This document shows, piece by piece, positions 10,455 through 62,666 of a stretch of DNA of 64,000 nt. Positions within the stretch are counted from its first letter, which is position 1. Each line of letters starts with the position of its first letter. The notes beneath the pieces are model-generated. The model was not told the origin of the DNA, searched no databases, and saw only the letters and a list, made by a program, of their open reading frames with translations. The position numbers and the translations under genes are program-made. Where the stretch lies: NCBI GenBank assembly GCA_016867815.1, contig VGIR01000003.1:2495-66494 (forward strand), written 5' to 3'. Source of the DNA: a candidate division WOR-3 bacterium. Its GTDB lineage: Bacteria; Hydrothermota; Tepidihabitantia; Tepidihabitantales; Tepidihabitantaceae.

Positions 10455-11084
10455 CTACCTAATCAGGCCAAGCCAATCGCCGAGCAGGAATTGGAGTCGG
10501 CCGATGAAGAGCGAGATACGGGCCATCACCGTGTAGCCGAACGATGCGCCGAACCCAACCATGACGAAAATGATGCCGACATAGCTGATCGGCTTGAGCA
10601 CGCCTTTCCGCTCGGCCGAGAAGAAGAAGTAGGTGATCGTGCAGACGACACCGACGAGGATGATTAGCGCCCAGAGACCTGCCTGCCAGTTGGCGAACGT
10701 GGCGCGGGTCACGATTGTCGCCTTGACCTGAGCGATGATGCCGGCCTCAACTGACCGCAGCAGCGACATGCCGGATCCGTAGCCCAGGAAGATGGCAATT
10801 GGGATCCGGACCAGCCACGAGATCTTCGGAATGAACCGCGTGAAGTAGAGCGCGCCGACTATGGCGGCCAGTATCAGCCAGAGCTTCTGGCCGTGCCCGA
10901 CCGGGTCGATCAGGCTGGGCACGAGCACCCGGTGCCAGGTGAAGGTGATGAAGTAGCCGTTGGAGACGCCAACGAAGAGGTGCTCGGCGGCGCGATAGAA
11001 TGGGTTCTCCTTGTACAGGAAGGAGAAGACGGCCAGGGTCATTATGGCCGCTACCCAGACCCAGGGATCGGTGGCGAGGTTCAT
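10455..11084 (-). CDS. hypothetical polytopic membrane protein (gene 4 of conserved membrane operon)
   Basis: 209 aa, about 6 TM helices; 4-nt overlap with upstream gene. Confidence 0.55.
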   Translation of the reverse strand: MNLATDPWVWVAAIMTLAVFSFLYKENPFYRAAEHLFVGVSNGYFITFTWHRVLVPSLIDPVGHGQKLWLILAAIVGALYFTRFIPKISWLVRIPIAIFLGYGSGMSLLRSVEAGIIAQVKATIVTRATFANWQAGLWALIILVGVVCTITYFFFSAERKGVLKPISYVGIIFVMVGFGASFGYTVMARISLFIGRLQFLLGDWLGLIR

Positions 11085-11992
11085 GACTTCCTCCTGCGGG
11101 TGGCGAAGTACCCGATGTTACCGACGACAATGAAGAGGATGATGGCGATGTGGGCCGCGGTCTGGGAGGACATCGCTTCGGTACCGCGGTTGCGGACGCG
11201 CCAGGTCATGCCCAGCCGGTCCATCTTCTCGCGCGTGAGCTGTTCGTACTCGGCCGCGCCGCGCATGCCGGCCAGCATGCCGGTGAACTGGCCGGAGTTG
11301 AGGTAGGTGTAGTAGTCGGCTGCCGACACCGCGGTGGTGCCGCAACCGATGCGGAGGCCGAACTGGGTCTGGGCATAGGCGACCCAGGAGATCGGCATCG
11401 ATGAGCCAGCAACCGAGACGAGGATGCCGACATCGTTGTAGTTCTTGACGTGTCGCGTCATCGGCAGCGATTCGGTTCGCGCACCGTAGTAGTCGACCGG
11501 GAAGACGTTGGTTATCCTCTCGCCCATGCCGAGCATCATTGTCAGGAGCGGCGTGGTCCAGCCCCAGAAGATGAAGTCCTCGCCGCTGATCACCGAATCC
11601 TCGTGCCTGGTAGCGACCGAGTCGAACTCGCGCTTTACTTCGCGCAGGGCGTCCTCGCCGAGGCCAAGCCCGTAGACCGTGGTCGCCACCAGGCCGACGC
11701 GGCGATCGGTGGCGAAGGCGTGGCGCAGGAGCGCCAGGGTCATCGGGTGCAGCTCGGCCTGGGTGTCGGGTGAATAGTCGACCGAGATAATGAGCGCCTT
11801 GTCCTCGGGCATCGAGTCGATGTAGCTGAACATCTGCTGCACCGGCGGTGAGGCAACCGGCTTGATCGGGAAGGGCTTGATCAGCGGCACCATCACGACC
11901 AGCCAGATGACGAGGTAAATCCACCGCCGGTCGATGCGCTGCAGCCTCTCCCAGAAGCCCTTTCGCCCGGCACTGCCTGACGCCGCCATCAC
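11081..11992 (-). CDS. hypothetical membrane protein with N- and C-terminal TM anchors and large central soluble domain (gene 3 of operon)
   Basis: 303 aa; ATGA overlaps on both sides indicate translational coupling. Confidence 0.55.
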   Translation of the reverse strand: MMAASGSAGRKGFWERLQRIDRRWIYLVIWLVVMVPLIKPFPIKPVASPPVQQMFSYIDSMPEDKALIISVDYSPDTQAELHPMTLALLRHAFATDRRVGLVATTVYGLGLGEDALREVKREFDSVATRHEDSVISGEDFIFWGWTTPLLTMMLGMGERITNVFPVDYYGARTESLPMTRHVKNYNDVGILVSVAGSSMPISWVAYAQTQFGLRIGCGTTAVSAADYYTYLNSGQFTGMLAGMRGAAEYEQLTREKMDRLGMTWRVRNRGTEAMSSQTAAHIAIILFIVVGNIGYFATRRRKS

Positions 11993-29048: not shown

Positions 29049-29110
29049 CAAGCGCAAGCTCAAGCACAAGCCGGGCAAGAGCCGCAAGCCTCAAGCCACA
29101 AGCTTCAAGC
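29049..29110. repeat. CAAGCC-type heptamer tandem array
   Basis: caagcgcaagctcaagcacaagccgggcaagagccgcaagcctcaagccacaagcttcaagc. Confidence 0.9.
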
Positions 29111-29164
29111 TATCCGGAAGGTCGTTCTCGTCGAGTGACGTCGGGCTCTGGAAAGCATCGAGCA

Positions 29165-29465
29165 AGCGACTCTCCCGACAGCTCTCCGAGTAGTCCTCCC
29201 AACTCCCCTCCGAATTGCCCGGCGGGCTGCTTTCCGGATTATCTGCTGAGCTACTCTCCGGACAAACTGCGGAGCAGTCCGCGGAACTGCCTTCCCCGCA
29301 GTTCGCCGAGGAGCTCGCCGAGTTCCTCTCCGGATAGCTCTCCGAGTAGCTGACCGAATAGCTGTCCGGGCAGTTCTCCAGATTTCCTTCCGGATAGCCT
29401 GCGGAGCAACCTGCCGGACTGCTTTCCGGGCAGCTTGCCGAACTGCCTCCCGAACAACCTGGGGG
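29165..29465. repeat. degenerate 12-bp minisatellite (consensus CCGGAnAGCTnT, about 25 units), locus 1
   Basis: ccggatagctct ccgagtagctga ccgaatagctgt ccgggcagttct ... read directly. Confidence 0.9.
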
Positions 29466-29600
29466 GCGGGGTAGGGGAGGAGAGTGAATGCCCAATAACC
29501 AATTACTAATGAAGAAGTTAGAACAACTCGGGACTTGCCTCCAGGAGGACATATAGGAAACTGGACGCGTGCGACCGGCCTCAAGTGAGGGGCCGGTTTC
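29466..29600. repeat. conserved ~130-bp flank of the 12-bp minisatellite (second copy at 57489-57640)
   Basis: gggaggagagtgaatgcccaataaccaattactaatgaagaagttagaacaactcgggacttgcctccaggaggacatataggaaactgg is about 75% identical to 57489-57600. Confidence 0.8.
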
Positions 29601-55625: not shown

Positions 55626-57083
55626 TCAGCGCTGCAGGACGACGCGTGCGGTGGCGTGCTCACCAGAGATTTCGCAGCGGATGAAGTAGGCGCCGGCGGG
55701 CAAGTCCGAAGTGGAAAGGGGAAATGACGAAGTCGAGACCTCACGCGAGAGAACCATTCGACCCTGACTGTCGTACATGCGCAGCGTAAGGGGCTTGGAG
55801 CTTGAGGTCGTGGGCGTGAAGCTGACTCTCGTCGCTCCACGGCACGGGTTCGGCTCGCAGGTGAGGGAGAGCGCGGGGGCCCGAGTTGGATTTGCCTTCG
55901 GCTCTGCTACCGCGACGTTGCCCAGCGAATCGGTCTTGATGAGGTAGACGTCATTCTCGACTACGCCGAACGACCGTGTGAGGCCGGTGACAACATAGCC
56001 GCCATCGGCGGTCTGCTGGACCGAACGACCTTCGTCGTAGGGCCCGTCGCCGAAGGTCCTTGTCCACATCGCGCTGCCGTCGGCCCCGGTCTTGATGAGC
56101 CATGCATCGGATGGATATGAACCGTTAGAGGCGGTCAGGCCGCCGACGATGTAGCCGCCATCGGTGGTCTGCTGGACCGAGAAGCCTTGGTCCACGCTCC
56201 GTCCGCCAAAGGTCCTCGTCCACTGCGTATCGCCGCGCGCGTCGGTCTTGATCAGGTAGACATCGCTGCTCTCTGCGCCAAAGGAGGTAGTGGGGGCCAC
56301 GATGATGTAGCCGGTGTCAGTGGTCTGCTGGATGGAACGGCCTCCTTCGCTGCCTGTGCTGCCGTAGGTCCTGGTCCACAGTGTGTCGCCGCCGGCGTCA
56401 GTCTTGACCAAGTACACGTCGTAGCTACTCGGAGAGCGGGCGTTGCCTGCGATGATGTAGCCGTCGTCGACTGTCTGCTGGACCGAGTAGCCGTTGTCGT
56501 TGCCCGTGCCGCCATAGGTTCTGGTCCACATTGTGTCGCCGTGAATGTCGGTCTTTACGAGGTAGACATCGGCCTGTCCCATGCCAAAGGATCTCGTGTA
56601 TCCAGTGATGATGCAGCCGCCGTCGGCAGTCACTTGGACAGAAGGACCACAGTCGTTGGAGTCGCCGCCGAAGGTCTTAGTCCAGAGCGTGTCGCCGTTG
56701 GAGTTGGTCCTAATGAGGTAGACGTCCTCGTTGCCCGCACCGAAGGAGGATGTCTTTCCTGAGATGATGTAGCCGCTATCGGTCGTCTGTCGGACGGAGA
56801 AGCCAAAGTCGTTCGAGTCGCCGCCGAAGGTCCTAGTCCAGAGCGTGTCGCCGAGGGAGTCGGTCTTGATGAGGTATACGTCTGTGTTGCTTCCCTCGAA
56901 GATGGAGGTTTGTCCAGCAATGATGTAGCCGCCGTCGGCGGTCTGTCGGACCGAGAAGCCGCGGTCGTCGCCTATTCCGCCGTAGGTGCGCTGGAAGGTG
57001 ATTTGGGCGGGGAGGAATGAGGGCAAGAGGATTGCGGCCAAGGCGGCCAGGGCCAGAGCGGAAGAGAACCGGTTACGATACAT
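55626..57083 (-). CDS. secreted repeat protein (about 10 copies of a ~47-aa TFGG...DVYLIKTD..GDTLWT repeat) with T9SS C-terminal sorting domain
   Basis: signal peptide starting MYRNRFSSALALAA; tail ...LRMYDSQGRMV...GAYFIRCEISGEHATARVVLQR. Confidence 0.7.
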   Translation of the reverse strand: MYRNRFSSALALAALAAILLPSFLPAQITFQRTYGGIGDDRGFSVRQTADGGYIIAGQTSIFEGSNTDVYLIKTDSLGDTLWTRTFGGDSNDFGFSVRQTTDSGYIISGKTSSFGAGNEDVYLIRTNSNGDTLWTKTFGGDSNDCGPSVQVTADGGCIITGYTRSFGMGQADVYLVKTDIHGDTMWTRTYGGTGNDNGYSVQQTVDDGYIIAGNARSPSSYDVYLVKTDAGGDTLWTRTYGSTGSEGGRSIQQTTDTGYIIVAPTTSFGAESSDVYLIKTDARGDTQWTRTFGGRSVDQGFSVQQTTDGGYIVGGLTASNGSYPSDAWLIKTGADGSAMWTRTFGDGPYDEGRSVQQTADGGYVVTGLTRSFGVVENDVYLIKTDSLGNVAVAEPKANPTRAPALSLTCEPNPCRGATRVSFTPTTSSSKPLTLRMYDSQGRMVLSREVSTSSFPLSTSDLPAGAYFIRCEISGEHATARVVLQR

Positions 57084-57194
57084 GACGACCTCCTGAGACC
57101 ATTTCGTGAGCGTCTGAGATGATAGGCTCGGGGCTGGGCTTGTCAAATGCGCGGGCGCGAACCTACGGTCGTGGGTTGCCGCGGAGGTTGATAC

Positions 57195-57488
57195 CTACCG
57201 GACAGCTTTCTGAATAGCTCGGGACATTGGTCTCCGGATTGCCTGGCAGGTTGCTCTCTGGGCTCGCTTCCGGGCGATTCGCCCGGCAGCCTGTGGAGCT
57301 ATCCGCGGGGCAGTTCTGCCCGGAGCTCTCCGGGCAGTTCGCCCTGCTCCTATCCGGACAGCCTTCCGAATAGCTGACCGAACAGCAGTCCGGATAGCTC
57401 TCCGGATTCCTCACCGGATAGCCTGCGGAGCAGTCTCCCGAACTGCTCGCGGGGCAGCCTCGAGAACAGCTCGCAGAATAGCCTGGGG
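57195..57488. repeat. degenerate 12-bp minisatellite, locus 2 (same family and orientation as 29165-29465)
   Basis: ccggacagcttt ctgaatagctcg ... ccggatagctct ccggattcctca ccggatagcctg. Confidence 0.9.
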
Positions 57489-57640
57489 GACGGGACAGGG
57501 GAGAAAGGAGAATGACGAATAACTAATTGCTAATGGGGAAGTTAGGAAACCGGAAGGCTCGACCGGAGGAGGACATATAGGAAACTGGGAGGGTGCGGCC
57601 AGCCTCAAATGGGGTGTCGGATTGCGCCTGCTTCCGAAGG
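57489..57640. repeat. conserved flank, locus 2
   Basis: gggagaaaggagaatgacgaataactaattgctaatggggaagttaggaaaccgg...ggaggacatataggaaactgg. Confidence 0.8.
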
Positions 57641-57659: not shown

Positions 57660-57860
57660 GCGGTCCGGGCGAGAGCCGGGACACGACTGCGGACGAAAGC
57701 GCGGACAGCCACGGGCGGATCCCAAATGGGGACAGTCCCACAGAGCGCTTGCGTCGGACTCAGCGCGGGACAGTCCCCATTCGGGCGGGACAGCTCCCGC
57801 ATCCGCCTGCAAGACTGGGGACACGATCCCAAACGTCGGACGTTTGGGTCATGTCCCTGC
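57660..57860. repeat. cluster of GGGACA-type palindromic hairpin elements
   Basis: 19-nt inverted repeat CCCAAATGGGGACAGTCCC / GGGACAGTCCCCATTCGGG (57721-57790) and hairpin GGGACACGATCCCAAACGTCGGACGTTTGGGTCATGTCCC (57818-57857). Confidence 0.85.
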
Positions 57861-58772
57861 GCTGCTTCGTCTGGGGGCGAGGAAGAGGACTGCAATGACC
57901 GGGCGGACAAATGAGCCGCCGTGGGCATCGATGAGCTTGCGAATGGCACGGAAGACTTCGTTCCTGACCTTGGGTGCGAGGATGGCGTGGTCGGACATGG
58001 TCTTCAGCAGTCCGATGTAGCTGTCAGCCGTGTACTCCTTCTGCCACGGGTAGCGGAGAATGGTGACCGGGCCGAACAGGCCCGAGCTCGTGATCTTCCT
58101 GCTCTGCCGTAAGATGCGCTCTTCCGGCGGTTTGGAGAGATGCACCTGCGGAGCGATGCGACGGTAGAGTGCACGCAGGTCGTTGTAGAACCTGTTGTCG
58201 GGGACATCCACGAAGTTCCAAAGCAGGGCCAGCGAGCCGGATGGTCTCAGTACCTTGGCGCAGCGCGTGAAGGCAAGCTTGGCAGGAATCCAGTGGAAGG
58301 CGGTGGCAGACAGGGCAAGGTCAAAGGGCTCGGGGCAATCTGCCCTCGGGACACGATCCGAAATCGCAGGACGATTTCGGTCATGTCCCACGGGCTGCCA
58401 ATCTTCGAAAGCTGTGTTGAGTATCTCGACGTTGGGGAAAGCTGCCAGGTTCTCGCGGCAGAGGCGGGCCATGCTCGCGCCCAGTTCGATGCCCGTGATC
58501 GAGAAGCCGCGGCGGGCGAGGGGTAGAGTTGCTTGCCCGGTGCCGGGGCCGATTTCCAGGATGCGGCCGGCTACCGGGATACCCGACATCCGTACCAGGT
58601 CGTTGAATAGCGGTTCGGGGTAGCCGGGCCGGAACCTGTCGTACAGCCGGGCGCCGGCATCGAACGAGTGCTTTCTCAGTTGATGCCGTTCGCGCGCTTT
58701 CAAGGGGCGGTCCGGGAGTTCGTGCCCACGCATTGATCTGAGTAGTCCTGAGCTTACCGCGCTCCCGGGCAC
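57849..58772 (-). CDS. class I SAM-dependent methyltransferase
   Basis: motif I ILEIGPGTGQAT; carries in-frame hairpin-element insertion at 58348-58389. Confidence 0.7.
   Translation of the reverse strand: MPGSAVSSGLLRSMRGHELPDRPLKARERHQLRKHSFDAGARLYDRFRPGYPEPLFNDLVRMSGIPVAGRILEIGPGTGQATLPLARRGFSITGIELGASMARLCRENLAAFPNVEILNTAFEDWQPVGHDRNRPAISDRVPRADCPEPFDLALSATAFHWIPAKLAFTRCAKVLRPSGSLALLWNFVDVPDNRFYNDLRALYRRIAPQVHLSKPPEERILRQSRKITSSGLFGPVTILRYPWQKEYTADSYIGLLKTMSDHAILAPKVRNEVFRAIRKLIDAHGGSFVRPVIAVLFLAPRRSSAGT
58348..58389. repeat. GGGACA hairpin element copy inside methyltransferase CDS
   Basis: GGGACACGATCCGAAATCGcaGGACGATTTCGGTCATGTCCC; outer stem identical to 57818-57857, inner stem differs but stays perfectly paired. 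Confidence 0.85.
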
Positions 58773-58886
58773 GCGTCCACATCCGGCACTGCGAAAAGCG
58801 AGCCGCGAGTCCTGCCGGAATGGTTGACCGGCAAGGAGAGGGGGCTATCATATTACTCTCTGGAAGAGTACCAAAGGAGCAAAGCG

Positions 58887-61800
58887 ATGAGACAGCTGCT
58901 TGTATTGCTGGTTCTGGTTTCCGTTCCGCTCTCGGCGGCAACGATGACGAGGACCGCGAAGTTCGCTCAGAGCGATCTGGTCATCTCCTCCCAGGACGGC
59001 TTCGACAACATCGAGCTGCCGGGCGGAGTCGGACTGATCCAGCCGGGCGCGCCGCGCGTGCCGCGCGTGGTCGAGGCGCTGGCGATTCCTTCCGGGGCCG
59101 TGCCGACGGGCGTGCAGGTCACGGAAGTGGAGTGGACGACGCTGCCCGGGACCTACAAGATAGGGCCGGCCCAGCCGGACGTGCCCCTGCCGCAGCCCGG
59201 CAAGTCGTTCACGCCCACGCTCTACAAGCAGGACGAGGCCATCTACGGGTCGAGCCAGCCTTACCCCGCCACGGTTGCGGTACTGACCGGCTACGGGACG
59301 ATGGGCGGGTATCGCATCGCTCACGTTGAGCTGCACCCGGTGCGCTACATCCCGACCACCGGTGAGCTGCAGGTAGCGACGAAGCTGAGCTACCGGCTGG
59401 AGCACGCCGGCGGCCTGCCCGCTGCCGTGGCGACGCCGCACCAGCAGACGCTGTTCGGCGACATGGTGCGGTCTTTCGTCAAGAACGCCAGGGACGTCAA
59501 CAAGCATGCACCTCAGGTACGTCGCGCGACGTCGCTGTCACTCCCGTCCGGCCACTATGAGTACGTGGTCATCACCGACTCGGTGATGGACACGGTGTTC
59601 CAGCGGCTGGCGGACTGGAAAACTGCCAAGGGTGTTCCCGGCACGGTCGTGCGGACGAGCTACATCTACGCCAACTACTCCGGATACGACAACCAGGAGA
59701 AGATCCGCAACTTCATCAAAGACGCCCGCACTACCTGGGGCACGATCTACGTGCTGCTCGGCGGCCAGGGCGACTATGTCTCGAATGGCCAGAACATCAT
59801 CCCGACGCGGATGGCGAACTACGGCGAGGACGAGCCCTGCGACCTCTACTATGCCGGGCTCGACGGCACCTGGGACTTCAACAACAACCACACCTACGGT
59901 CAACTCGCCGACTCGGCCGACATGTACTCGGATGTTTTCGTGGGCCGGGCTCCCGTCTACAACGTTGCCATGGCCCGGAACTTCGTGAACAAGGTCCTGA
60001 AGTACGAGCAGGACCCGCCCACCGGCTTCATCAAGAAGATGGGGTTGTACACCGCGATTCTCTGGTCGAGCTACGAGGAGCGGCCGTTGCAGGAGTCGCT
60101 GGCCCGCATGACGCCGTCCGGCTGGTCCGACCAGAAGCTCTATGAACGGACAAGCACGCTCTCCCGTCAGGCGGTCAACGACTCGATGAAAGGCGGTGTC
60201 GGCATGGGCCACTGGAACGGCCACGGCAACCAGAGCGGCATTTACATGGGCTCCAACCCGTTCTTCAATTCGAGCGATGCCGACGCGCTCACTAACGGCG
60301 ACAAGACCGGCATCGTGGTTTCCATTGCCTGCGACTGCGCGGCGTGGGACTGGGTGCCGAACGGCGACTGCCTGGCCGAGCACATGGTCAACCGGGTCGG
60401 CGGCGGCTGCGTCGCCACGATCATGAACACCCGCTATGGCTACGGTGCGCTGAACCAGCAAGGCCAGTACGTGCCCGGTCCGTCCGAGCGGCTGGACACC
60501 ACCTTCTTTGCCGGGGTGTTCTACTACGGGGCGCCGCATACCGGCCAGGCGCTGGCACGCTCCAAAGCCTGCTGGGCGCCCTATGCGGATTCGCTCTACC
60601 AATATGACATGCAGCGGTACTGCATCTACGACCTGAACCTGATCGGCGACCCGGAGACACCGCTCTGGACCGCCGACCCGACGGCCCTCAGCGTCTCCCA
60701 CGCCGGGGTGGTGAACATCGGCAACAACATCCCGTATTCAGTCACGGTGACGGCGGCGATGGACGCGCCGGTGGAGTCGGCGATGGTCTGCCTCAAGAAA
60801 GGCAGCGAAGTGGACGTGAAGGGATGGACCAATTCCAGCGGGCAATTGACGCTCTACGTGTCAGCCCAGACGCCCGGGCAGATGTTCATGGCGGTGAACT
60901 CCCGGAACCACTACATCTTCCAGGATACGGTAACGGTCATCTCCAGTTCGCGCTACGTATCGCACCTGCGTTCGGCCATCTCCGATCCGGGGCCGGGCGG
61001 CAACAACGACTCGATACTCAACCCGGGCGAGACGGTCAAGGTACCGATGTGGGTCAAGAACTGGGGTCAACTGACCGCCAACTCGGTTACCGCCAAGCTG
61101 AGGACCTTTGACCCGAATGCCCAGGTGACCGACTCGGCCAGGACGTTCGGCAACATCAACGCCGGGGATTCCGCCTACACCGGCTCGAACGGGTTCGGCC
61201 TGCGAGTGAACTCGGGCCTGAACAACGGTTATCCGGTCACCTGCTCGCTCTACTGCCGGGATGTGCTCGACTCAACCTGGGTTTCGGTCGTAACCTACTT
61301 GGTCGGCGCACCGGTGCTGGCCAAGCGGGCCGTGACCGTGGTTGACTCGGCCCATGGCGGCAACAACAACGGCCGCATCGACCCGAACGAAACCGTGGAC
61401 CTGATGATCCGTATCGGCAACACCGGTCTCGGCCATGGGTACAACAGCCGCGCCGTGCTCAAGTCCGGTGATGCCCGGTTCACTGTAAGCGATTCGACCG
61501 CGAGCTACGGGCTGATTCGGAAGGGTGACAGCGCCAGCAACGCGTCGGATCTCTTCACCGTCCATGCCGGCTCGATTCCCCCGGAGACGCCGGTCTCCTG
61601 CACGCTCCGCTACTATGCCGACGGCGGGTACACGAAGACCGAGCAGCTCACGATAGTCGTGGGCGAGCTGCGGTCGAGCGACCCCGTTCCGGACGGCCCG
61701 CGCACGCCGGTAGTCTACTACGCCTACGACGATGGCGATTCGCTCTACACCAAGCACCCGGCCTATGAATGGGTTGAGATCAACGGCGTCGGCACGCAGC

Positions 61801-62666
61801 TGAGCTTCTCGCAGAACGACGATGTGACGATGATTAGTTTGCCGGCAGCGTTCGGACCGTTCAAGTTCTATGGCCAGCGCTACACGCAGATCTCGATCTC
61901 TGCCGACGGCTGGATTGCCGGCGGGAACTACACGACGGGCAACTACACCAATACGCAGCTGCCCAGCACAGCGGCGCCACGGGCGGCCATGTTCCTCAAC
62001 TGGGACGACCTGGCGCCTGCCACCGACGGCTCAGGCTACCTCTACTACTACCATGACACCGCCAACCACCGTTTCATAGTCGAGTACGACTCGGTGGAGT
62101 ACTGGAACACCTCAGGCGCGGATAAGTTCCAGGTCATTATCTACGATACTACCGTCACGACCTACACGGGTGACAATGCTTTCCTGGTTCAGTACAAGAC
62201 CGCCAACATGTACACCGGTGCCACGCTCGGCATCCAGGACCAGACCAAGGTAATCGGCATCCAGTGTCTGTTCAACGGCAGCTACCACAAGGCCTGCGAA
62301 CCGATTGCTCCGGGACGGGCGATCCTGTACACGACCGATCCGCCGACAGTCGCTGTGGCGGAAGAGCACAAACCGGCCAGCGTGCCGACGAAGCTGGCTT
62401 TGAGCGTCCGTCCCAACCCCTTGCGCACCCGCGTCTCGCTCTCCTACGCGGTGCCGGTTGCTGGGCGCGTGAGCATCAAGGTGTATGACGCTGCCGGCAG
62501 AGTCGTCCGCGACCTCGTCAACGAGGAGATCGCCGCGGGCCGGTACTCGGCTACCTGGGACGGCAGTTCTGCCGATGGCAGGAGGATTGCCAATGGCGTG
62601 TACTTCTGCAAGCTCGTTTCACCGATCGGGGCGCGTCAACAGAAGCTGGTAGTCGCCCGGCGCTAG
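58887..62666 (+). CDS. peptidase C25 (gingipain-family) cysteine protease with propeptide, Ig-like domains and T9SS C-terminal sorting domain
   Basis: RBS AAAGGAG then ATG 58887; signal peptide; His/Cys region HWNGHGNQSG ... VVSIACDCAAWD; tail ...RVSIKVYDAAGRVVRDLV...GVYFCKLVSP...KLVVARR. Confidence 0.8.
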   Translation: MRQLLVLLVLVSVPLSAATMTRTAKFAQSDLVISSQDGFDNIELPGGVGLIQPGAPRVPRVVEALAIPSGAVPTGVQVTEVEWTTLPGTYKIGPAQPDVPLPQPGKSFTPTLYKQDEAIYGSSQPYPATVAVLTGYGTMGGYRIAHVELHPVRYIPTTGELQVATKLSYRLEHAGGLPAAVATPHQQTLFGDMVRSFVKNARDVNKHAPQVRRATSLSLPSGHYEYVVITDSVMDTVFQRLADWKTAKGVPGTVVRTSYIYANYSGYDNQEKIRNFIKDARTTWGTIYVLLGGQGDYVSNGQNIIPTRMANYGEDEPCDLYYAGLDGTWDFNNNHTYGQLADSADMYSDVFVGRAPVYNVAMARNFVNKVLKYEQDPPTGFIKKMGLYTAILWSSYEERPLQESLARMTPSGWSDQKLYERTSTLSRQAVNDSMKGGVGMGHWNGHGNQSGIYMGSNPFFNSSDADALTNGDKTGIVVSIACDCAAWDWVPNGDCLAEHMVNRVGGGCVATIMNTRYGYGALNQQGQYVPGPSERLDTTFFAGVFYYGAPHTGQALARSKACWAPYADSLYQYDMQRYCIYDLNLIGDPETPLWTADPTALSVSHAGVVNIGNNIPYSVTVTAAMDAPVESAMVCLKKGSEVDVKGWTNSSGQLTLYVSAQTPGQMFMAVNSRNHYIFQDTVTVISSSRYVSHLRSAISDPGPGGNNDSILNPGETVKVPMWVKNWGQLTANSVTAKLRTFDPNAQVTDSARTFGNINAGDSAYTGSNGFGLRVNSGLNNGYPVTCSLYCRDVLDSTWVSVVTYLVGAPVLAKRAVTVVDSAHGGNNNGRIDPNETVDLMIRIGNTGLGHGYNSRAVLKSGDARFTVSDSTASYGLIRKGDSASNASDLFTVHAGSIPPETPVSCTLRYYADGGYTKTEQLTIVVGELRSSDPVPDGPRTPVVYYAYDDGDSLYTKHPAYEWVEINGVGTQLSFSQNDDVTMISLPAAFGPFKFYGQRYTQISISADGWIAGGNYTTGNYTNTQLPSTAAPRAAMFLNWDDLAPATDGSGYLYYYHDTANHRFIVEYDSVEYWNTSGADKFQVIIYDTTVTTYTGDNAFLVQYKTANMYTGATLGIQDQTKVIGIQCLFNGSYHKACEPIAPGRAILYTTDPPTVAVAEEHKPASVPTKLALSVRPNPLRTRVSLSYAVPVAGRVSIKVYDAAGRVVRDLVNEEIAAGRYSATWDGSSADGRRIANGVYFCKLVSPIGARQQKLVVARR

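Follow-up and report, generated by a model that had tools for sequence, protein, structure and literature searches.

We analyzed a 64,000-nucleotide stretch of DNA from a candidate division WOR-3 bacterium (contig VGIR01000003.1), referred to below as the window, in which the gene for a class I S-adenosylmethionine (SAM)-dependent methyltransferase carries one short palindromic hairpin within its coding sequence and a second one at its 3' end. The features of this locus are collected in Table 1 together with the positions of related copies found in frame in other genes; loci outside the window are designated by L numbers. The start of the methyltransferase is probably the Met of MRGHELPDRPLKARE, as judged from the N-termini of its orthologues, and the mechanical open reading frame (ORF) reaches 58772. 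An earlier reading of the letters, here called the original prediction, had described two hairpins with the same outer stems and different, perfectly paired inner stems, and had interpreted them as members of a palindromic family with a selected secondary structure, one of which had entered the gene in frame in the manner of miniature inverted-repeat transposable elements (MITEs) or Rickettsia palindromic elements (RPEs). Our analysis supported that interpretation, and both hairpins were recovered at the positions where they had been placed.

Table 1. Features of the methyltransferase locus in the window and related in-frame copies at other loci.
Feature	Position	Strand	Description	Score
Solitary head GGGACACGA (- strand ...GTCGTGTCCC)	57678..57686	+	aligns to right arm of the single hairpin of L205	
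Type-B element	57721..57785		two GGGACAGTCCC head-to-head palindromes, 27-nt spacer, flanks CCCAAATG/CATTCGGG paired	
GGGACAGCTCCC	57787..57798		short imperfect head-to-head palindrome between hairpin 1 and type-B element	
Hairpin 1	57818..57857	-	40-nt element, 3' end of methyltransferase gene	covariance model 60.2 bits, E 9.5e-12
Host methyltransferase	57849..58733	-	class I SAM-dependent methyltransferase, Pfam Methyltransf_25/11/12/23	
Hairpin 2	58348..58389	-	42-nt palindromic element in frame in methyltransferase	covariance model 61 bits, E 6e-12
Insertions in secreted-type proteins	L011 3242-3284, L035 263-302, L070 2731-2773, L080 2202-2241			
In-frame hosts	L109 4101-5375, L105 1408-3951, L045 2276-4525, L091 781-2655		two amidohydrolases, Eco57I/N6-type DNA methylase, pyruvate:ferredoxin oxidoreductase subunit	

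Hairpin 1 has the sequence GGGACACGATCCCAAACGTCGGACGTTTGGGTCATGTCCC and hairpin 2 the sequence GGGACACGATCCGAAATCGCAGGACGATTTCGGTCATGTCCC. Read on the minus strand, hairpin 2 is 5'-GGGACATGACC GAAATCG TCCTG CGATTTC GGATCGTGTCCC, and its translation within the minus-strand ORF 57849..58772 is GHDRNRPAISDRVP, which agrees with the predicted in-frame reading. The outer stems common to the two hairpins are GGGACAYGA / TCRTGTCCC. Their 9-bp inner stems (CCCAAACGT/ACGTTTGGG and CCGAAATCG/CGATTTCGG) differ at four positions, and all four differences are compensated on the opposite arm. A loose pattern, GGGACANGA-N14-30-TCNTGTCCC, gave two matches in the 64-kb window, compared with none in 100 dinucleotide-preserving shuffles. 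When folded as plus-strand RNA, hairpins 1 and 2 reached -24.3 and -24.1 kcal/mol (z -5.2 and -4.9), and the minus strand, which is the sense strand of the methyltransferase, went beyond these values at -28.3 and -29.3 kcal/mol (z -6.3 and -7.5). The minus-strand RNA is more stable because a C.A mismatch turns into a G.U pair; with the mismatch read in this way, the fold keeps one bulged A. A covariance model of the family, applied to the 64 kb, returned only hairpins 1 and 2 (E ~1e-11), plus two GGGACAGTCCC palindromes as weak matches. The totals of GGGACA and TGTCCC in the window are about those expected by chance, the elements are confined to the methyltransferase locus, and the genome of the window does not look overrun by them.

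The presence of hairpin 2 within an open gene allowed a comparison with relatives of the host protein, for which the database held 1621 homologues. Close orthologues, at 68-82% identity, have a base length of 271 aa and insert-bearing versions of up to 373 aa, and alignment showed the length variation to be confined to two sites, one after FEDWxxx and the other after NFxDxPD. At these sites we compared the DNA of several orthologues (L201-L205). L201 and L205, the latter syntenic with the window, have an empty site that reads TGG GAG GYC GAG | CCT GAC GGA TTC GAC with nothing between the two halves, and the orthologues with an empty site are 75-82% identical to the window methyltransferase. 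L202 carries the same 42-nt hairpin at the same site as the window, identical at 40/42 nucleotides, in a protein that is only ~75% identical. In L204 a hairpin is nested within the loop of another hairpin at the methyltransferase site, L203 has GGGACTGTCCC-type elements at both the first and the second site, and some orthologues hold a second GGGACWGTCCC element at the hairpin site. Since orthologues occur without the hairpin residues, the methyltransferase copy is an insertion, as had been proposed, and not a segment of conserved protein sequence shared by relatives: the site is empty in L201 and L205 and filled or nested in others. The inserted peptides are translations of the repeats, GTVP corresponding to GGGACAGTCCC, DCP to the complement of GGGACAGTCCC, and GHDR and RDMT to GGGACATGAC read in two frames.

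Hairpin 1 affects the same gene in a different way, which the original prediction had missed. Its first arm provides the stop codon of the methyltransferase, with GGG ACA TGA read as G, T and stop (..AGT-stop). Orthologues end either in ...AGT-stop or in ...RRDMTQF(R/L)-stop, which are the same head in two different frames, and L201, without the hairpin, ends in ...KR-stop. An AlphaFold2 model of the methyltransferase, of moderate quality (mean predicted local distance difference test (pLDDT) score 70.9; 32-sequence alignment), placed the inserted residues 131-146 after the FEDW segment and before the strand FDLALSA, without secondary structure and with pLDDT values under 50. This supports the insert being a low-confidence loop and no more than that. 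We also observed that the native methyltransferase codons for VDVP, at window 58200-58206, spell the head motif GGGGACA on the plus strand. This is exactly the second insertion site, where L203 has an in-frame GGGACTGTCCC...GGGACTGTCCCC element, and it hints that head-like sequences may be attractors of insertions.

Downstream of the gene lie further elements of the same kind. In minus-strand order, hairpin 1 is followed by GGGAGCTGTCCC, then by a 65-nt type-B element, and last by a solitary ...GTCGTGTCCC at 57686-57678. The 19-nt imperfect inverted repeat that had been noted nearby was found at 57721-57739 / 57767-57785, where the two halves are 89% complementary, and the additional GGGACA cores reported at 57678 and 57787 are both present. 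The GGGACAGTCCC inverted repeat is an element related to the hairpins. The type-B element folds as a single long hairpin (-43.8 and -52.1 kcal/mol) and is orthologous in L202 at 1495-1543; the same element, down to its spacer GCGCTGAGTYCGACGCAAGCGCTC, is found in L203 at 2429-2477, where it is part of the methyltransferase reading frame. Type-B elements thus occur at two different places, and the type-B family has therefore moved too. The L202 homologue of GGGACAGCTCCC is GGAGCTGTCCC, which immediately follows the L202 GGGACATGACC arm. As for the solitary head, the aligned sequences are ...cagtcgTGTCCCggctctcgcccggaccgcatc in the window, ...gggatcgTGTCCCgagtctcgccagaccgcatc in L205 and ...gtcgcGTCCCgagtctcgcccgaaccgcatc in L202, and its flanks also match those of L205 (TGTCCCggctctcgcccggaccgcatc versus TGTCCCgagtctcgccagaccgcatc). 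From this alignment, the solitary head would be the outer arm of an older hairpin that was split by ~170 nt of later nested elements.

We searched for the family elsewhere by scanning one genome per species with the pattern GGGACATGACC-N12-26-GGATCGTGTCCC, which has 23 fixed bases. Further copies proved to be plentiful: the exact pattern, and with it the 23-nt outer stem, occurs in at least 120 loci from at least 10 phyla, often at many loci per metagenome-assembled genome (MAG), and 11 copies were found in IMG/VR. Among the matches listed, the host MAGs belong to WOR-3, Aminicenantes/Acidobacteriota, Armatimonadetes, Planctomycetota, Desulfobacterota, Alphaproteobacteria, Chloroflexi, Firmicutes, Actinomycetota and Myxococcota, and the count in several single MAGs runs from 8 to more than 12 loci. 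Dispersed copies are compact asymmetric hairpins of 38-48 nt with a loop length and inner stem that are lineage-typical yet variable, and solitary extra heads often adjoin them. Many copies reach further outward: in the C-class, eight flanking bases on each arm are paired (GGAAWTCG ... CGAWTTCC), and the G-class, in which the inner stem places hairpin 2, is usually flanked by GCGC ... AAGC.

The eleven outer pairs are fixed by the search pattern and so carry no covariation information. We therefore looked at the inner stem, where the first six positions are fully paired in 92 of the 115 distinct copies among the matches listed. In an ungapped alignment of the arms, these six variable pairs show 114 double-sided changes, as against 31.5 in shuffles, with 0/500 shuffles reaching the observed number. 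The covariation score was 0.299 compared with 0.083 in shuffles (again 0/500), and it collapsed once the partners were slid relative to each other. The claim that covariation marks a selected secondary structure, which had been made from two copies, is borne out across the family. In IMG/VR the asymmetric arm form had 11 matches on nine stretches and two symmetric-arm forms had none each, which indicates that the arm asymmetry (TGA-CC versus CGATCC, with a bulge and a mismatch) is conserved and does not reflect decay. The nine IMG/VR stretches (L206-L214) are contigs classed as viral.

These data bear on the simplest explanation of the window copies, namely that they are a local accident in which a short duplication within the methyltransferase locus was followed by drift. 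The two copies do lie no more than 530 nt apart, with no others in the window, as a duplication would have it. However, hundreds of copies with identical outer stems exist elsewhere, four paired inner-stem positions differ in a manner not expected from simple duplication, and orthologues hold other family members at the same sites. We regard this explanation as already refuted by the scan and give it next to no credence.

We next considered copies inside other genes. Intragenic copies were first counted by open-frame length alone (25 sense versus 24 antisense), a count that we dropped as too noisy in high-GC genomes. With a filter on codon-position GC, coding-like frames hold 26/143 of the family copies among the matches listed (~18%), 16 of them sense and 10 antisense. 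In one sense frame the head gives TGA, and in 20 of these 143 copies this TGA terminates an open frame 100 or more codons long. The intragenic survivors read RDMTExxxxxSDRVP or GHDR...SDRVP, as is consistent with a filter on length, frame and loop. Pfam confirmed eight of the hairpin-spanned host ORFs as real domain proteins: a Peptidase_M28 protein; beta-propeller, BNR and LVIVD proteins, in all of which the insert occupies one and the same position of the C-terminal tail; two amidohydrolases; an Eco57I-type methylase; and a pyruvate:ferredoxin oxidoreductase. Four secreted-type proteins of WOR-3-like MAGs have RDMTExxxxxSDRVP in frame at the same C-terminal tail spot, after ..LP and before ..LLDxxGR.

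The orientation of these copies is relevant to the idea that the hairpins are primarily functional RNA, such as a 3'-end stabilizer, a terminator or a protein-binding site, that is kept by selection on transcripts, their likeness reflecting a shared RNA-binding partner. Several observations fit this idea, among them the better fold of the sense (minus-strand) RNA with G.U in place of C.A, the location of hairpin 1 exactly at the 3' end of a gene, and the covarying inner stems; in addition, Di Nocera, De Gregorio and Rocco (2013, BMC Genomics 14:522; PMC3733652) argued that many repetitive extragenic palindromic (REP) sequences act as RNA elements. On the other hand, in-frame copies in both orientations argue against a purely sense-RNA function, copies nest and are present or absent among orthologues, and the hairpin arms are the inverted repeats of a transposase gene, as described below. 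Neither hairpin is followed by a T-run, which also led us to reject an intrinsic terminator, and Rfam gave no gathering-score match in the whole window and nothing over the hairpins at E<=1. Overall, we consider a primarily RNA-based function improbable; a secondary RNA role may have been co-opted by individual copies.

A possible source of mobility came from two of the hairpin loci. In L096 (Magnetovibrio), four hairpins surround a gene of 212 aa whose stop codon is GGG ACA TGA, and in L026 the same gene adjoins a hairpin; the hairpins of both loci share the 23 outer-stem bases of the window. The 212-aa product matches Pfam Y1_Tnp (E 1e-10 and 3e-13 for L096 and L026), and the best NCBIfam match of the L096 protein is REP_Tyr_transpos, at 68.5 bits, below the cut-off of 80. 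Among solved structures, 4ER8 (E. coli TnpA-REP) is the closest and the ISDra2 transposase the next; the PDB matches 2XM3 and 2XMA have a homologous HUH/Y1 catalytic core. The gene has at least 8000 homologues, and the best 120 are 63-77% identical across phyla. An alignment of 23 of the Y1 homologues showed the motifs NHVH, WQ and YVELNP in a protein of ~220 aa.

For analysis of the flanks of this gene we took 80 metagenomic Y1 loci (L121-L200). Of 76 loci with sufficient flanking sequence, 55 have GGGACA within 200 nt upstream; for TGTCCC within 260 nt on the downstream side the figure is 52 of 70. The background is 0.06 and 0.03 per 200 nt, respectively, and only 8 and 9 loci show the wrong orientation. 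Over ~25-30 nt, the left end of the Y1 loci is the inverted repeat of the right end (for example, GGAATTCC-GGGGACA-CCATACTTAATT), and complete GGGGACA...TGTCCCC hairpins stand on one or both sides in L172, L175, L184, L183 and L158. Since the gene ends are mutual inverted repeats, the window hairpins look like two such ends joined around a loop. Most flanks of the Y1 genes read GGGGACAC or GGGGACAG, both of which fit the consensus GGGGWSAS. The same consensus fits the plus strand of hairpin 1 (ctGGGGACACgatcc) and the type-B element (GGGGACAG), and the other arm (GGGACAT) and hairpin 2 (cGGGACAC) each deviate from it at one position. We also noted that the left inverted repeat of the Y1 loci is commonly followed by ..ATTATTGAC(A), a candidate -35 box for the transposase gene; that beyond the right end there are often short tandem repeats of the outer portion of the inverted repeat (for example, AGAATTACC in L122, similar in L134 and L195); and that L138, L139, L145 and L147 have tandem extra left heads.

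These loci also allow an assessment of whether the hairpins could be classical MITEs of a DDE-type insertion sequence with inverted repeats starting in GGGGACA, the Y1 gene being cargo or a neighbor. An architecture of two inverted repeats and a loop is indeed MITE-like, and the Y1 genes are bounded by inverted repeats and not by the subterminal hairpins typical of IS200/IS605. However, Y1 is the sole conserved gene between the repeats in the 80 loci, elements of ~0.8-0.9 kb have no room for a DDE gene, no direct target duplications adjoin the hairpins, and the conservation of the bulge and the mismatch points to a folded single strand as what is recognized. A DDE-type origin is, in our view, very unlikely. 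The identity of a classical MITE was set aside on the same grounds: inverted repeats are present, a direct target-site duplication is not, and the flanks are either mutually paired (C-class) or GCGC..AAGC (G-class).

Other known classes of repeat were compared with the hairpins as well. The core consensus of integron attC sites is R''/R' = RYYYAAC ... GTTRRRY. We rejected attC because the outer stem GGGACAYGA / TCRTGTCCC is without GTTRRRY and the R'/R'' cores are absent, and CRISPR because the copies are single or nested and not regularly spaced. No tRNA or tmRNA is present, and a literature search with the literal head and arm strings returned unrelated primer matches only.

The closest published counterpart is the TIRtron of Di Nocera et al. 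(2013; PMC3733652), a tyrosine transposase gene (TIRYT) flanked by long inverted repeats that share GGGGWSAS. The same study described moderately abundant families of terminal inverted repeats (TIRs), as dimers or clusters, in a few cultured species, as well as in-frame intragenic GTAG/CGTC REPs and REP termini that provide stop codons (TAG from GTAG REPs). According to Quentin et al. (2018; PMC6006769), the majority of TIRYTs belong to TnpAY1 subclass 2.1, which has the motifs NHVH, W[EQ] and Y[IV]ELNP and a median length of 238 aa and is equivalent to Bertels group 1. In the description by Bertels et al. (2017; PMC5581495), this group exceeds the other RAYT groups in size and breadth of distribution and has only a weak association with repeats. 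Our loci resemble TIRtrons in having a Y1/HUH gene bounded by GGGGWSAS inverted repeats, with the same protein motifs and length, and in having dispersed copies, dimers and clusters; the bounded gene was found in related loci only (the 55/76 and 52/70 metagenomic loci, L096 and L026). They differ in that the hairpin family is compact and asymmetric, keeps 23 invariant outer bases over at least 10 phyla, and has about one in five copies in frame inside genes.

With the REP/REPIN-RAYT systems of E. coli and Pseudomonas fluorescens, the family shares short imperfect palindromes inverted around a single Y1 gene (L096 and L026 are REPtron-like), covarying stems, clustering, nesting, and termini that sometimes supply stop codons to neighboring genes. 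In contrast to these systems, all copies have GGG(G)ACA as their head, where REPs have GT[AG]G at the hairpin foot; the transposase is of another subclass, with a score of 68.5 bits against a cut-off of 80; and many copies are intragenic and not extragenic. In view of the missing GT[AG]G and the many intragenic copies, we file the hairpins under TIRYT-associated repeats and not under canonical REPs. The likeness to RPEs, which are about 100-150 bp long, and to intragenic GTAG/CGTC REPs is that palindromes lie in frame in genes that are still open, adding a peptide at a tolerant site. The window element is, however, 40-42 nt long with a GGGACA head, an unrelated sequence and no CGTC terminus, whereas RPEs are CGTC-tagged (PMC3733652) and have no associated transposase. 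Finally, IS200/IS605 elements (IS608, ISDra2) have a homologous HUH/Y1 core and an imperfect hairpin with an extrahelical base, a plausible recognition element, but their ends are not mutual inverted repeats and they insert beside a fixed tetranucleotide, a rule that we did not find for the hairpins.

Taken at the level of sequence, the family is spread over a wide range of phyla, its arms correspond to the termini of TIRYT genes, and its copies are present or absent among orthologues, nest, and lie in frame in both orientations. The hairpins are thus likely to be a non-autonomous REP/MITE-like palindromic element, in effect the two inverted-repeat termini of a TIRtron fused head to head with a short loop between them, and the TIRYT transposase would be what mobilizes them. 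In the mechanism that we propose, the hairpin would form in single-stranded DNA, and the TIRYT enzyme would recognize the folded strand through the conserved head, bulged base and mismatch and then cut and rejoin it, by analogy with the TnpA of IS608/ISDra2 and with E. coli TnpA-REP, whose substrates are hairpins in single-stranded DNA. New copies would land preferentially in or beside older copies, and copies in genes would persist only if their length is a multiple of three, their frame is without a stop and they fall in a tolerant surface loop. In the methyltransferase of the window, one copy has lengthened the loop after FEDW by 14 residues and a second has taken the place of the original gene end, where it supplies the TGA stop; downstream, 57678-57857 is a nest of such elements. 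The family goes beyond published descriptions in three respects: its outer stems hardly vary across many phyla, its bulge and mismatch are conserved, and a large proportion of its copies are nested or lie in frame within genes.

Several results weigh against this reading. With just two copies per 64 kb, the element is not abundant in the window. Compared with the empty sites, the window has 54 additional nt, of which the hairpin accounts for 42 and the other 12 are unexplained, and neither the comparison of empty with filled methyltransferase sites nor the flank logos revealed a consistent target-site rule or a duplication. By tblastn there is no Y1 transposase gene in the 64-kb window or in 118 other hairpin loci; among the matches listed, only 2 of the 120 hairpin loci have the transposase, both in Alphaproteobacteria, and WOR-3-like loci have none. 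A cognate enzyme in this organism is therefore hypothetical. Most TIRYT ends are of the GGGGACA-CCATAC type, as against the TGACC/CGATCC sub-head of the window copies. To our knowledge, no TIRYT enzyme has been shown experimentally to move anything. The survey of Quentin et al. (PMC6006769), moreover, reported no REP-like sequences around subclass 2.1 genes.

A bolder proposal, which we put forward tentatively and consider rather doubtful, is that the hairpin is a single horizontally spreading micro-transposon lineage, held near-invariant across at least 10 phyla by one highly conserved TIRYT that reads the asymmetric single-stranded fold and favors earlier copies or head-like sequences and coding DNA. 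If this were true, the lineage would be a recurrent source of loop insertions in proteins, as in the methyltransferase hot spots, the secretion-tail region of secreted proteins, the amidohydrolases and the restriction-modification methylase, and a repeat partner would have been found for group 1 RAYT / subclass 2.1, which is the largest Y1 class and reportedly has no cognate repeats. TnpAY1 subclass 2.1 (group 1 RAYT, TIRYT) is the largest RAYT-like Y1 class, for which the systematic survey found no associated repeats, and the GGGGACA hairpin is a compact candidate substrate for its enzymes; with its conserved bulge and mismatch it can be synthesized, which makes a biochemical test straightforward. 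The series of empty, filled and nested alleles in one gene should be useful for studying how palindromic repeats enter coding sequence and what a loop of a Rossmann-fold methyltransferase tolerates. There is also a consequence for annotation: in MAGs, the repeats introduce stop codons, lengthen ORFs and inflate the size of proteins.

The neighborhood of the methyltransferase has features of its own. The gene sits between large secreted-protein genes, at window 58824-62666 and 55626-57146. The flanking ORFs of the window (1280 aa and 506 aa) align at the DNA level to their counterparts in L205, with a synteny of ~75% nucleotide identity. The precomputed Pfam matches for L205 (1849-9675 and 12283-16674) are Peptidase_C25 together with FlgD_ig/Por_Secre_tail to one side of the gene; to the other, three ORFs match FlgD_ig or Por_Secre_tail. 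A non-coding module of ~450 nt, without an Rfam match, occurs twice in the window, at 57163-57610 and 29100-29600, and is conserved in the syntenic L205 at 10866-11317 (~73% identity). It consists of a 12-nt periodic array, with a unit of approximately TCCGGATAGCTC, followed by a conserved AT-rich block (..AATGACGAATAACTAATTGCTAATGGGGAAGTTAGGAAAC..GGACATATAGGAAACTGG..).

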